Positions 11,984 to 39,220 of a stretch of 64,000 nt of DNA are shown one piece after another. The position numbers were made by a program, and so were the translations under genes. This stretch comes from Alistipes sp. GTDB taxonomy: Bacteria > Bacteroidota > Bacteroidia > Bacteroidales > Rikenellaceae. Within the stretch, counting starts at the first letter, position 1, and the number at the start of each line of letters is the position of its first letter. The stretch spans positions 99,513 to 163,512 of the forward strand of contig JAFQHI010000026.1 in NCBI GenBank assembly GCA_017398045.1, read 5' to 3'. The notes beneath the pieces are model-generated. The model saw nothing but the letters and a program-made list of their open reading frames with translations, was not told where the DNA came from and searched no databases.

Positions 11984-12094
11984 ATAAAGGTTGCTAAAAG
12001 GGTGTGTTAAAGGATTGCTAAAGGTTACTAAAGGTGATTAAAGGTAGCTAAAGGCCCCCCTAATTTTTAATTCTAAATTCTAAATTCTACATTC
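11984..12094. repeat. 10-bp-period [CT]TAAAGG array followed by an AATTCTA heptamer array
   Basis: ctaaaggtta ctaaaggtga ttaaaggtag ctaaagg (to 12054); aattcta aattcta aattcta cattc (12069-12094). Confidence 0.8.
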
Positions 12095-12836
12095 CCTTTG
12101 CTCGTTTTGCCATGGCCGAGGCAAAGACGAAGTCGTTCAGCTCGCGGTTCTCGGCGTGGAGAATATCCTCCTTTGTTCCCTCCCACCATTTGTGGCCCTC
12201 GTGGATATAGACAATCTTTTCGCCAATCTCCATCACCGAGTTCATATCGTGGGTGTTGATGATGGTCGTGATGTTGTACTCCTTCGTGATTTCGTGAATC
12301 AGGTTGTCAATCACAATCGAGGTCTGCGGGTCGAGACCCGAGTTCGGCTCGTCGCAGAACAGGTAGCGCGGATTCATCACAATGGCGCGGGCAATGGCCA
12401 CACGCTTAATCATACCGCCCGAGAGTTCGGCAGGGTAGAGGTGGTTGGCATTTTCGAGCCTTACGCGCTTCAGACAGAAATTCACACGCTCCATCTTCTC
12501 CTCCTCGGACTGCTCGGTGAAGAGGTCGAGCGGCAGTTTGATGTTCTCCTCGACGGTCGAAGAGTCGAGCAACGCCCCACCCTGGAAAATCATGCCGATA
12601 TCCTTGCGGATGGCCTTGCGCTCCATGAAGCCCAACTGCGTGTAGTTCGTCTCGTCGTACCAGACCGACCCTTCGTCCGGCTCGTGCAGGCCGACCAACG
12701 TCTTGAGCAGCACCGTCTTACCCGAACCACTGCGGCCGATGATAAGGTTCGTGCATCCGGTCTTGAACTCGACCGAAATGTCGTTCAGCACGGTGCGTCC
12801 GTCGAAGGATTTGATGATATGTTCGGCGCGAATCAT
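12087..12836 (-). CDS. mlaF: ABC transporter ATP-binding protein, MlaF/Mkl-like
   Basis: GRSGSGKT, LSGGMIKRVAIARA, DEPNSGLDP; coupled to an MlaE permease. Confidence 0.85.
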   Translation of the reverse strand: MIRAEHIIKSFDGRTVLNDISVEFKTGCTNLIIGRSGSGKTVLLKTLVGLHEPDEGSVWYDETNYTQLGFMERKAIRKDIGMIFQGGALLDSSTVEENIKLPLDLFTEQSEEEKMERVNFCLKRVRLENANHLYPAELSGGMIKRVAIARAIVMNPRYLFCDEPNSGLDPQTSIVIDNLIHEITKEYNITTIINTHDMNSVMEIGEKIVYIHEGHKWWEGTKEDILHAENRELNDFVFASAMAKRAKGM

Positions 12837-13576
12837 ATGAGCAGGATTTGCGTAAGAATCAGGTTAAAAATCATGATAACGACCGACCCCGCGACCACGG
12901 CACGGGTCGAGGCCTTGCCCACCTCCAGCGAGTTGCCCTTGGCGTAGTAGCCGAAGAAGGCCGATATGGAGGTGATGATGAAGGCGAAGACGGCCGATTT
13001 GATGAGCGAATAGGTAATCGAGTAGGGGCGGAAGTCAATCAGGATGCCCTCGATGTAGTTCGAGGGAATCATGATGCCCGTGGCAATGGCAATCAGGTAG
13101 CCGCCCACGATGCCGATGCCAATCGAGAGAATGGTCAAAAGCGGGAAGAAAAAGACCGCTGCCACAATCTTCGGCAGAATGAGGTACGAGGCCGAATTGA
13201 TGCCCATAATCTCCAGTGCATCAATCTGCTCGGTGATGCGCATCGTGCCAATCTCGGAGGCGATGGCCGAACCGACCTTGCCCGAAAGAATCAGCGCGAC
13301 GACCGTCGATGAGAATTCCAGAATCATCGTCTCGCGCGTGGCGTAGCCGATGAGCGACTGCGGGATGAAGGGCGACTCGAGGTTGATACACATCTGGAGC
13401 GTGATGACCGCACCGATGAAGATGGAGATGATGGCCGTCAGGCCAATCGAGTCGATGCCGATGGCCTCCATCTCATAGACAATTCGCCGGCGGTAAATCG
13501 AAAACTTCTCGGGACGGGAAAAGACCTTTCCCATCAGCAGAAAGTAGCGACCGATAAGTTCAAAGAACTTCAGCAT
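12833..13576 (-). CDS. mlaE: MlaE-family ABC permease
   Basis: GKVGSAIASEIGTMRITEQIDALEIMG, EVGKASTRAVV. Confidence 0.88.
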   Translation of the reverse strand: MLKFFELIGRYFLLMGKVFSRPEKFSIYRRRIVYEMEAIGIDSIGLTAIISIFIGAVITLQMCINLESPFIPQSLIGYATRETMILEFSSTVVALILSGKVGSAIASEIGTMRITEQIDALEIMGINSASYLILPKIVAAVFFFPLLTILSIGIGIVGGYLIAIATGIMIPSNYIEGILIDFRPYSITYSLIKSAVFAFIITSISAFFGYYAKGNSLEVGKASTRAVVAGSVVIMIFNLILTQILLI

Positions 13577-13582
13577 AACTCG

Positions 13583-13984
13583 TTACTCTTTGGTCTCTTC
13601 GAATTCGACATAATCGCCCACATCCTCCGAGATGCGCTTCTCGGGGGTGGCGGTGGTCTTGTGGACGGTCACCTCGCCCTCCTCGGGTTGGTTGGTGGGG
13701 CGTTGTTGACGGGCAAAGGGGTTGAATCCCTGGCTGTGGTGCTGTTGCTGCTGCCCGAATTGGTCGCGCACCTGCTGCTGGACCTTGTAGATGCGCCAGC
13801 GCAGGGCGATGAGCAGGACGATAATGGCGATGGCAAAGCCAAGCATTATATATAATATAAGTGTTGCCAGACCGCGCAATACGGCCGGAGCGGCAATGGC
13901 CAGGATGACCACTACGGCTACAAAAACCGGATTTCGACGGACGAAACCGAGGAGCGCGTCTAACAGTGCATTCAAATAATTCAT
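13583..13984 (-). CDS. DUF4834-like membrane protein
   Basis: Start refined to MNYLNALL (ATG at 13984); two TM segments, Q-rich linker, C-terminal GDYVEFEE. Confidence 0.65.
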   Translation of the reverse strand: MNYLNALLDALLGFVRRNPVFVAVVVILAIAAPAVLRGLATLILYIMLGFAIAIIVLLIALRWRIYKVQQQVRDQFGQQQQHHSQGFNPFARQQRPTNQPEEGEVTVHKTTATPEKRISEDVGDYVEFEETKE

Positions 13985-14097
13985 CGTTTTCGGGGTGTTA
14001 AGACATCCTTTTCCACTTACAAAGGTAGCGAAAATTATGCTTTTTTCAATATTTGTCGTAAATTTGGTGCCGAAAATAAACAACAATCATCCGCATT

Positions 14098-37600: not shown

Positions 37601-38887
37601 ATGCAAATTGTAGAGATTCATGCAAGAGAGATTCTCGACTCGCGCGGTAATCCGACGGTTGAGGTAGAGGTTCGCACCGTATCGGGTGCTTTCGGTCGTG
37701 CTGCTGTTCCCAGCGGTGCTTCGACGGGCGAGAACGAGGCTTTGGAGCTTCGTGACGGCGACAAGGGTCGCTACCTGGGTAAGGGCGTTGAGAAGGCCGT
37801 GAAGAATGTAAACGAGGTCATCGCTCCCGCCATTATCGGTATGAACGTATCGGACCAGGTCGGTATCGACAAGGCTATGATTGAGCTGGATGGTACGCCG
37901 ACGAAGTCGAACCTGGGTGCTAACGCCATCCTGGGTGTTTCGCTGGCCGTAGCTCACGCTGCTGCCGACTACTTCGGTATGCCGCTCTATCGCTATATCG
38001 GTGGTGCTAACGCCAAGACGCTGCCCGTTCCGATGATGAACATCATCAACGGTGGTTCGCACTCGGATGCCCCCATCGCATTCCAGGAGTTCATGATTCG
38101 TCCTGTTGGCGCATCGTCGCTCAAGGAGGGTGTTCGCATGGGTGCCGAGGTATTCCACAACCTGAAGAAGGTGCTGCACGCTCGTGGTCTTTCGACGGCC
38201 GTAGGTGATGAGGGTGGTTTCGCTCCCGCACTCGACGGTACGGAGGATGCCCTGGATTCGATTATCAAGGCTATCGAGGCTGCCGGTTATGTTCCCGGTA
38301 AGGATGTGATGATTGGTATGGACTGCGCTTCGTCGGAGTTCTACAAGGACGGCATCTACGACTACACGACGTTCGAGGGTGAGAAGGGCGCAAAGCGCAC
38401 CTCGAAGGAGCAGGTTGAGTACCTGAAGGGTCTGGTTGAGAAGTATCCCATCGACTCGATTGAGGACGGTATGTCGGAGAACGACTGGGAGGGTTGGCAG
38501 CTGCTGACCGCCGAGATTGGTGACAAGTGCCAGCTTGTGGGTGACGACCTCTTCGTGACGAACGTAAACTTCCTGAAGAAGGGTATCGAGATGGGTTGCG
38601 GTAACTCGATTCTGATTAAGGTGAACCAGATTGGTTCGCTGACCGAGACCCTCGACGCTATCGAGATGGCTCACCGTGCCGGCTACACGTCGGTAACCTC
38701 GCACCGTTCGGGTGAGACGGAGGATGCCACCATCGCCGATATCGCCGTGGCTACCAACTCGGGTCAGATTAAGACCGGCTCGATGTCGCGTTCGGACCGT
38801 ATGGCCAAGTACAACCAGCTTATCCGTATCGAGGAGGAGCTTGGTGAGGAGGCTGTTTATGGTTATACCAAGGTTTACCGCAAATAA
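37601..38887 (+). CDS. eno: Enolase
   Basis: [48 protein letters not shown]. Confidence 0.98.
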
Positions 38888-39008
38888 AATCGCATATAAC
38901 GGGTGATTTCTGCGTTACGCTCGAACCGAAAATGCTCACATACGCAGAGTATGCTCCGCTGTTCGGTTCATCGCAAGCCTTGAAATCCCCACGTTATCTG
39001 CAATTTTA
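38885..39008. repeat. 124-bp long palindromic element
   Basis: taaaatcgca...tgcaatttta with nested stems around catacgcagagtatg. Confidence 0.7.
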
Positions 39009-39017
39009 TGAGTAAAT

Positions 39018-39053
39018 AAGAGGTCGCTCGGTTGTGGGCGACCTCTCTTTTTT
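39018..39053 (+). terminator. eno terminator
   Basis: agaggtcgc / gcgacctct plus T-run. Confidence 0.75.
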
Positions 39054-39064
39054 GTTGGGTGTGG

Positions 39065-39220
39065 TAAGGGTGCTTAAAGGTGCTTAAGGGTGCTTAAGGG
39101 TGCTTAAGGTCTCTTAAGGTCTCTTAAGGTTTCTTAAGGTATGGCCGTCTTTAGCTTCCTTTAATCTCCTTTAATCTCCTTTAATCTCCTTTAGTTCCCT
39201 TTAGTTCCCTTTAGCTCCCC
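39065..39220. repeat. Two-armed 10-bp-period array (CTTAAGG units, then CTTTA[AG] units)
   Basis: tgcttaaggg/ctcttaaggt x~7, then ttaatctcct/ttagttccct x~7. Confidence 0.85.

Follow-up and report, generated by a model that had tools for sequence, protein, structure and literature searches.

The DNA analysed here is a 64,000-nt window (positions 99513-163512 of contig C16) of a 2.36-Mb Alistipes draft assembly in 56 contigs, with 54.7% G+C and an estimated completeness of 91.5%. It contains a gene for a 190-aa four-helix-bundle protein and, at four other sites, gene-less arrays of short tandem repeats; how these arrays relate to the gene and to similar arrays elsewhere in the genome is our subject. 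The initial annotation had described arrays with a period of about 10 bp at three of the sites and a 9-bp variant at the fourth. Using Tandem Repeats Finder (TRF) for repeat calls in the window and in the genome, we recovered all four, with period-10 arrays at 11985-12054, 15603-15642, 15660-15686, 39065-39139 and 39149-39219 and a 9/18-bp array at 36414-36453, and shuffled sequences gave none. Moreover, a three-unit pattern (TWARG-N5-TWARG-N5-TWARG) matched the window 63 times and did not match any of 100 dinucleotide-preserving shuffles. The 18-mer ATTAAAGGTAGCTAAAGG, which was said to be shared by positions 12037 and 15601, occurs in the window at exactly these two positions and is absent from shuffles. 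All four arrays (11985, 15601, 36414 and 39065) lie between genes, as had been proposed; the arm at 11985-12054, for example, has an ABC-transporter gene (12087-12836) on one side and a RidA-like gene (11599-11973) on the other, both on the minus strand, and lies between the stop of the former and the start of the latter. Note that the gene calls come from a rough model of our own, and that the intergenic and gap-type counts given below rest on these calls.

At two of the sites, 15601 and 39065, a purine-rich arm is followed by a pyrimidine-rich arm, and on either strand both fold into hairpins that are long but imperfect (z = -3.1 to -6.0), in agreement with the initial annotation. The single arms at 11985 and 36414 folded no better than shuffles. 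Units of the same type, with the word CTTAAGG, also make up the arm pairs on both sides of the four-helix-bundle gene and recur in three 175-bp tandem units (Table 1). When the arrays, the neighbouring repeats X and X3 and the cores A and B were searched with Rfam 15, nothing but tRNAs was found at the gathering threshold and only chance miRNA-like hairpin matches (E > 0.05) were found at permissive thresholds; a known RNA family for the arrays was therefore rejected.

Table 1. Arrays, neighbouring repeats and associated features in the window (positions in window coordinates).
Feature	Position	Strand	Basis or copy number
Purine-rich single arm, about 6.6 units of (Y)TAAAGG + 3-4 nt	11985-12054	+	TRF, sequence
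AATTCTA heptamer array adjoining the arm at 11985-12054	12069-12094	+	TRF
Palindromic repeat X, 120 bp, starting 4 bp past the purB stop, arrays on its 3' side	15451-15570	+	
Purine arm, 4 units of YTAAAGG	15601-15642	+	TRF, folding
Pyrimidine arm, 4 units of CCYTTAG, convergent with the arm at 15601-15642	15660-15694	-	TRF, folding
Second window copy of palindromic repeat X	36282-36402	+	
9/18-bp array, ATTAAAGAA / ATTAACGAT	36414-36453	+	TRF
CT-rich 10-mer and 7-mer arrays (CTCTAAATCT, TCTTTCC), closing the composite element	36502-36551	+	TRF
Structured intergenic repeat X3, directly after the enolase stop codon	38888-39000	+	about 21 genome copies
Canonical hairpin + T-run terminator of enolase, upstream of the 39065 arrays	39020-39055	+	sequence reading
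Purine arm, 7.5 units of CTTAAGG + 3 nt	39065-39139	+	TRF, folding
Pyrimidine arm, 7 units of CCTTTAR + 3 nt; word unlike that of the partner arm at 39065-39139	39149-39219	-	TRF
CT-rich heptamer arrays (39232-39298 and 39452-39534) flanking core B	39232-39534	+	TRF
Core B, conserved element of about 150 bp between CT-rich heptamer arrays	about 39298-39451		6 genome copies
Three 175-bp tandem units, each with a CTTAAGG purine arm and a TTAAGC pyrimidine arm	42277-42794	+	
CTTAAGG-type arm pair upstream of the four-helix-bundle gene	43008-43090	+	
Four-helix-bundle gene, 190 aa, PF05635/TIGR02436 + TIGR04258 suffix domain	43137-43709	+	
Arm pair downstream of the four-helix-bundle gene: 10.7 units of CTTAARG, then a pyrimidine arm	43718-43896	+	

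A motif scan of the whole genome identified 237 arrays of at least three units in 132 loci, compared to 0 in shuffled sequence. All but two of the loci (130/132) are intergenic. Loci were found in 48 of the 239 gaps between convergent genes, in 57 of the 1055 between tandem genes and in 16 of the 249 between divergent genes, and at nine of the 132 no gene was called between the locus and the contig end. Within the 57 tandem gaps (the two distances differ in 56) the array is closer to the upstream stop in 36 and to the downstream start in 20. Short-period repeats account for 9% of intergenic bases versus 0.5% of genic bases. Because intergenic arrays of period 7 (271 TRF rows) and period 9 (124 rows) are enriched along with those of period 10 (241 rows), 10 bp is not the only period, and we rejected strict 10-bp helical phasing as the defining property (the initial annotation had noted that the period is about one helical turn). 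What recurs in the arrays is a conserved 7-nt word (CTTAARG, YTAARGG or, in arrays of 9-bp period, TAAAGARAT). The roughly three bases that separate one word from the next vary, the last of them mostly being a purine that precedes the C or T of the following unit.

These words are also those of the arms that flank the resident four-helix-bundle genes. PF05635 is the "23S rRNA intervening-sequence protein" family, and contig C16 carries all three of its genes in this genome, namely the one in the window and two paralogues at C16:38529-39068 and C16:42044-42550. An AlphaFold2 model of the 190-aa product of the window gene (gene 1) is all-helical (pLDDT 86), and its top fold matches are 2GSC (Xanthomonas Xcc0516, TM-score 0.75 on the target) and BT_0352 (2RLD). 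The PF05635 protein Xcc0516 of X. campestris (2GSC) has been reported to be a homopentamer (PMC4990558). The arms of gene 1 are built of CTTAAGG, those of gene 2 of CTAAAGG/CTAAGGG in four tandem arm-pair modules, and those of gene 3 of the 9-mers TAAAGAGAT and TTCGTTAAT. More than 1.2 kb from any PF05635 gene, CTTAARG was found at 62 loci, YTAARGG at 78, TAAAGARAT at 5 and ATTAAYGA at 2, whereas permuted words gave essentially no loci; 199 of the 365 intergenic TRF rows of period 9 or 10 hold the gene-arm words. In the window, the arrays at 11985 and 15601 carry the word of gene 2, the array at 36414 shares its words with the arms of gene 3 (one is TAAAGAGAT, the other TTCGTTAAT as its reverse complement), and the locus at 39065 has one arm with the word of gene 1 and a partner arm with words of genes 2 and 3. 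No PF05635 gene lies between the arms at the four arrays, and about 130 loci of the genome are gene-less in this way. Other cargo was sought between distant arm pairs, but the search turned up nothing other than ordinary genes, for instance those for a lipoprotein, a CotH-like protein and an ECF (extracytoplasmic function) sigma factor.

Homologues of the 190-aa protein are present in 9 of 24 congeners, and at the nine homologue loci with readable flanks (eight congeners and G027) each gene lies between 9-10-bp arrays of its own word: TAGGGTCGT in G005, GTAANGGCNA in G020, TAAAAACAT in G003, TTTAGAGAA in G016, GTGGGTAG in both G013 and G010, TTAAGGAAA in G012 and TTGTGGGAC in G027. Because the simplest cassette in these relatives consists of a purine arm, the gene and a pyrimidine arm, a gene-less arm pair looks like a cassette module minus its gene. 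A search with the Pfam model added canonical short PF05635 genes in G014 (117 aa) and G006, flanked by GCYAAYA and AATTCAA heptamer arms. (G014 had been considered as a counter-example with arrays and no gene; this dissolved when the Pfam model found the 117-aa gene that the 190-aa query had missed.) Over 80 loci of the protein subfamily, drawn from many Bacteroidales and from Kiritimatiellae, Verrucomicrobiota, Lentisphaerales and Pirellulaceae records, strict arrays adjoin the gene at 45, compared to 7 of 239 control windows, and the usual period of the flanking arrays is 9 bp (47 of 62). Relatives of the 190-aa protein with 50-55% identity occur in Kiritimatiellae, Lentisphaerales, Verrucomicrobiota, Pirellulaceae and Akkermansia records (L143, L161, L172, L186, L193 and L194), which suggests that the gene has been transferred across phyla. 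The search for relatives gave 574 in all.

The comparison of dispersed words with gene-arm words covers the whole genome for the present genome (G000) and for G013, and rests on about 16 sampled loci for G014. The TAAAGG pattern matched 114 times in G000 versus 0-3 times in each of the 24 congeners; a looser four-unit pattern matched 346 times in G000, 30 times in G014 and 14 times in G016. At 84-87% nucleotide identity over two genes, G016 is the closest relative. In G013, the four-unit pattern of GGTAG, the word beside the four-helix-bundle gene of that genome, matched 46 times over many contigs, at about 30 dispersed loci. In G010 it matched 15 times, always beside the four-helix-bundle gene, and 38 of 39 other genomes searched (G000 included) gave 0 matches, the remaining one (G028) giving a single unrelated match. 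The heptamer word of G014 recurs beside the dispersed elements of that genome, where ATTAAGGG arms belong to a family resembling MITEs (miniature inverted-repeat transposable elements), with a conserved core of about 40 bp and near-identical copies, nested in a larger palindrome. (This family, at loci L096-L112, has about 15-30 copies with the core GGTCGCGTTCCGCGACGCTACGCAGTACA...GCGCTACCC and GCYAAYA heptamers at its borders.)

The orientation of the arms is strict. Wherever arms are adjacent, the purine arm precedes the pyrimidine arm, in 41 cases (29 RY, 9 Rn and 3 RYY) versus 0 in the reverse order (two-sided binomial p ~1e-12); a further 78 groups consist of single arms. Partner arms of one locus are often built of different words, and in the filler between the words they complement each other no better than they do arms of other loci (identity 0.46 versus 0.48, permutation p = 0.79). 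On these grounds a selected palindrome or cruciform was rejected: the spacers are not complementary beyond the word. A strand-specific RNA hairpin was rejected as well, given that the sense transcript folds more stably in 10 tandem gaps and the antisense transcript in 12. Thus, the initial annotation was right about the capacity of two-armed loci to fold, but selection for hairpins or cruciforms finds no support. The conserved features of the arrays are the word and its orientation, and because the arms of a locus match no better than arms of different loci, the ability to form hairpins follows from the shared word as a by-product.

Comparison between strains revealed changes in unit number, as the initial annotation had anticipated. 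The array at 11985 has two additional units in strain contig L007 and a variant unit in L012, and the ten-unit arm between xylB and xylA has exactly one 10-bp unit fewer in L040. The arm pair at 15601/15660 has an equal number of units in nine strain contigs, with point changes only, and the array at 39065 is identical in four near-clonal strain contigs. Between the sister species G013 and G010, which share 79-90% nucleotide identity over matched flanks, whole modules differ. A 123-bp arm-pair module of G013 has no counterpart in G010, where the gap measures 30 bp; at two more sites G013 is filled and G010 empty; and in one gap GGGAC and GGTAG arrays of the former stand against CACCAACCT 9-mers of the latter. 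Downstream of purB, all strains of the present species carry a copy of repeat X and the arm pair; because a plain terminator is all that G016 and G011 show at this place, the comparison points to a gain in this lineage.

On balance, we think it probable that the arrays are gene-less, MITE-like copies of PF05635 cassette arms and likely serve as binding arrays of the four-helix-bundle proteins. In such a scheme each arm would be a polar row of a 7-nt word (CTTAARG, YTAARGG or TAAAGARAT) at 9-10-bp spacing with variable filler, and two facing rows would make up a module that holds a gene at its centre in relatives and is mostly empty in this genome. Each word would be the recognition site of an oligomeric protein encoded by the paralogue whose arms have that same word, and the gene-less modules would be non-autonomous. 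Modules would settle in dispensable DNA just downstream of genes, often behind pre-existing palindromic repeats, and the arrays, their length altered by replication slippage, would turn over from species to species. (What this scheme says of protein binding, of how copies are made and of consequences for the host is inferred.) That the arms belong to the cassette rather than being older than it is argued by the identity of their words with those of the resident genes, by words that change with the gene, and by the restriction of the G010 arms to the vicinity of its gene. Moreover, strict polarity combined with a lack of complementarity between arms fits oriented rows of recognition sites, as in transposon ends with multiple sites, rather than a selected hairpin.

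Several observations weigh against this interpretation. The flanks of the filled and empty sites of G013 and G010 have diverged, and no target-site duplication can be read in them. Presence and absence of a gene inside an otherwise identical arm pair was seen in no strain. Among the proposals of the initial annotation, it is the link to the four-helix-bundle gene that gains indirect support, from the words shared with the arms of three paralogues, from the filled and empty sites of the sister species and from unit numbers that vary between strains. No transposase, REP-associated tyrosine transposase (RAYT; REP, repetitive extragenic palindrome) or recombinase could be tied to the arrays, the search for enzymes having covered reverse transcriptase only. 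Matching ends were found on a single kind of partner, which encodes a four-helix-bundle protein and not a transposase. AAAGAGG and AATTCTA heptamer arrays are abundant and have no cognate gene in this genome, and mixed words at single loci are frequent, unlike what simple copy-and-paste would predict. Finally, in a survey of 45 loci in relatives, own-word gene-less arrays lay within 10 kb of the gene at only 3-4, which is not clearly above a cross-locus control (54/1980). Own-word arrays being rare near the genes of relatives, wide dispersal is a trait of particular genomes and not of the family. (Head-to-head polarity and kinship with Avd had prompted us to consider templated addition resembling that of telomerase or of diversity-generating retroelements; no match to reverse transcriptase, PF00078, was found in the 91.5%-complete genome, and this model was therefore removed.)

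Three other explanations were weighed, none of them fully exclusive of the cassette-arm interpretation. If the arrays were landing pads, that is, self-arising arrays of the type of cyanobacterial short tandemly repeated repetitive (STRR) sequences, into whose centres the four-helix-bundle cassette and other small elements preferentially insert, they would be empty targets and not derivatives of the cassette. The genes of relatives do lie exactly between a purine and a pyrimidine arm, inner arms are nested within outer arms or palindromes, and core A (see below) is present in or absent from the heptamer array at 12069 depending on the strain; yet the GGTAG arrays of G010 are found beside its gene only, so that arms seem to arrive with the gene, the words differ by gene copy and by species, and one 7-nt word is unlikely to have arisen independently at 60-80 loci without copying or selection. 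We consider landing pads unlikely. Neutral simple-sequence expansion, in which slippage or repair bias peculiar to the lineage would inflate repeats that have no function and no real tie to a gene, might account for the joint inflation of several unrelated 7-, 9- and 10-bp unit families, for unit indels between strains and for the patchy distribution among congeners. It is difficult to reconcile with a conserved word amid variable filler, strict convergent polarity, the absence of permuted words and the match between dispersed words and gene arms in three independent genomes, and we regard it as very improbable.

The arrays could instead serve the host at the 3' ends of genes in the manner of REP elements and bacterial interspersed mosaic elements (BIMEs), as transcribed hairpins that bring about bidirectional termination or protect mRNA 3' ends, with the link to the gene being secondary. 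We find this quite unlikely, although four points speak for it: the bias of arrays towards convergent gaps and the 3' ends of genes; the folding of two-armed loci, with z between -3 and -6; the polarity, which would place a U-rich arm at the 3' side of transcripts of either direction; and the lack, in 73 of 153 gene-end/array pairs, of any other terminator that can be recognised within the gap. Against these points stand the 78 groups that are single arms unable to fold, the lack of arm complementarity beyond the shared word, the absence of strand bias in fold stability, and orthologous gaps in relatives that have no arrays. Arrays also occur within the gaps of a xylose operon, and some end 11-40 bp ahead of start codons. 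Nor is there a rule for the order of terminator and array: over gene-end/array pairs the terminator comes before the array in 48 (the enolase terminator at 39020-39055 included), after it in 36, and is not recognisable in 73.

Among known systems, cyanobacterial STRR heptamers are dispersed short tandem repeats. In Xanthomonas, about 170 dispersed GGGAATC heptamer arrays show an intergenic and near-stop bias and form 70-75 convergent plus/minus pairs (PMC4692102). The Xanthomonas heptamers have been read as G-quadruplex formers, and no gene family was named in connection with them; GGGGAYT heptamers of Nostoc are a further case of dispersed intergenic repeats (Rehm et al. 2015, PMC4692102). 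Like those repeats, the arrays described here are numerous, dispersed, non-coding and built of short units, lie in gaps of aligned or convergent gene pairs close to stops, and vary in unit number. Unlike them, they have 9-10-bp units with A/T-rich T(T/A)A(A/G)G words, are found in a Bacteroidales host, and match the arms of PF05635 genes in their words; they cannot form G-quadruplexes because their units lack four G-tracts. Note that X. campestris also encodes Xcc0516, the PF05635 protein that is the best fold match to the window protein.

Intervening sequences of 23S rRNA that carry an open reading frame (ORF) occur in Leptospira as well as in Coxiella. In Coxiella burnetii, the S23p gene is in the loop of a 28-bp stem, and the intervening sequence is excised by RNase III (Warrier et al. 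2016, PMC4990558); GACAGAT heptamers beside the ORF vary by strain, and present or past mobility has been proposed (PMC4990558). Such elements resemble the cassettes described here in having a gene of the S23p/PF05635 family between inverted repeats and short tandem repeats adjoining the ORF, and the convergent arrays at 15601/15660 and 39065/39149 resemble the arms of cassettes of this type in having the words of resident gene arms. The intervening sequences differ in sitting in rRNA helices and in being cut from RNA by RNase III, whereas the arrays lie between protein genes, number about 130 per genome, pair through the shared word only and are mostly gene-less, as are the four in the window.

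As small, multi-copy, non-coding, palindrome-like intergenic modules that concentrate downstream of genes and are missing at the orthologous sites of relatives, the arm pairs are also reminiscent of MITEs and of REP/BIME elements. Their convergent arms correspond to the terminal inverted repeats of MITEs, and the G014 copies hold a conserved core between the arms; however, the arms are tandem arrays of variable length rather than fixed terminal repeats, and copies cannot be aligned end to end. Like REP/BIME elements and intrinsic-terminator hairpins they are located at the 3' ends of transcription units; unlike these, their arms are not kept complementary, and arms that stand alone do not fold. 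Some transposons have ends with multiple phased transposase-binding sites; examples are the TnsB sites of Tn7, the ends of Mu and the subterminal repeats of plant Ac and En. These share with the arrays a layout of direct short repeats in one end and inverted ones in the other, with fixed convergent polarity; here, by contrast, the only associated protein is a small helical bundle that has no known catalytic domain.

Literature searches on the family names and on Bacteroidales intergenic repeats found no paper on such arrays. What the present analysis adds is a genome-scale gene-less family, the match of three paralogues with three words, the dispersal of an own word in a second genome, the lack of arm complementarity, the filled and empty sites, and the polarity statistic. 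A further-reaching and doubtful, though not negligible, idea is that PF05635 proteins and word-specific arm arrays form a self-propagating system that has no canonical transposase, in which an oligomer would read one 7-nt word per 9-10 bp and promote the copying or retention of modules, gene-less ones included, in transcribed gaps. Were this so, 23S rRNA intervening sequences, repeats of the STRR and Xanthomonas type and the Bacteroidales arrays would be one kind of element; both the STRR/Xanthomonas heptamers and the four-helix-bundle family of the 23S intervening sequences have gone unexplained for decades. The present genome, with its three paralogues, three words, 60-80 gene-less loci for each main word and a handful for the third, amounts to an internal test of specificity. 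If the proteins bind their own words, this would give the protein family a function and would explain a class of assembly-breaking repeats that fills 9% of the intergenic DNA here; if they do not, the arrays would be a well-described case of lineage-specific repeat inflation.

Other repeats adjoin the arrays. Repeat X is a near-perfect 120-bp palindrome (TTTTCGATTTTATAGGGCA...TGCTCCTCTAAAATCAAAAA) with 28 genome copies, in 17 of which its 5' end is 0-13 bp past the stop codon of a co-oriented gene. Short-period arrays lie 3' of X in 23 of the 28 copies, and in only one copy is there an array on the 5' side as well; two of the four window arrays (15601 and 36414) come after an X copy. X-like copies are present in G010 and G013. 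At the 39065 locus the order is X3, the enolase terminator, the arm pair, and then CT-rich heptamers around core B. X3 (GGTGATTTCTGCGTTACGCT...CTCACATACG...GTATGCTCCG...CGCAAGCCTTGAAATCCC) is usually found immediately 3' of a stop codon. Core A (about 80 bp, about eight copies) is set in AATTCTA heptamers and core B in CTCTTTG heptamers; both contain the motifs TTCCTCCTCGCGGCTYGGCA and CGCAGCGTCGGTT as well as UUCG-tetraloop hairpins, and core-B-like sequence occurs in G013 too. In strain contig L007, core A lies inside the heptamer array that corresponds to 12069 (at about 840-930 of that contig) and is missing at the same site of the window.

In the xylose-utilisation row of this genome (G000 C15:123583-129068; aldose epimerase, NUDIX regulator, xylB and xylA), arm pairs occupy successive gaps and stop about 40 bp ahead of start codons, and the word order of the arrays is mirrored across the NUDIX gene. 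Runs of 6-9 G or C are frequent at the arm junctions of this genome, and the arms of G013 are punctuated by GCGCGC hexamers (GCGCGC - arm - GCGCGC - arm - GCGCGC). A CT dinucleotide run at 39466-39490 and a poly-C tract of 9-12 C at 39706-39717 differ in length among otherwise identical strain contigs and, being upstream of a pilin/PI-PLC gene at 40077, may be a phase-variable tract. Finally, a 13-kb island that follows the 15601 array pair (window positions about 15721-28872) is missing from strain contig L007 (GCA_054295805.1), which at this site keeps one copy of the boundary repeat, followed by a two-component system.

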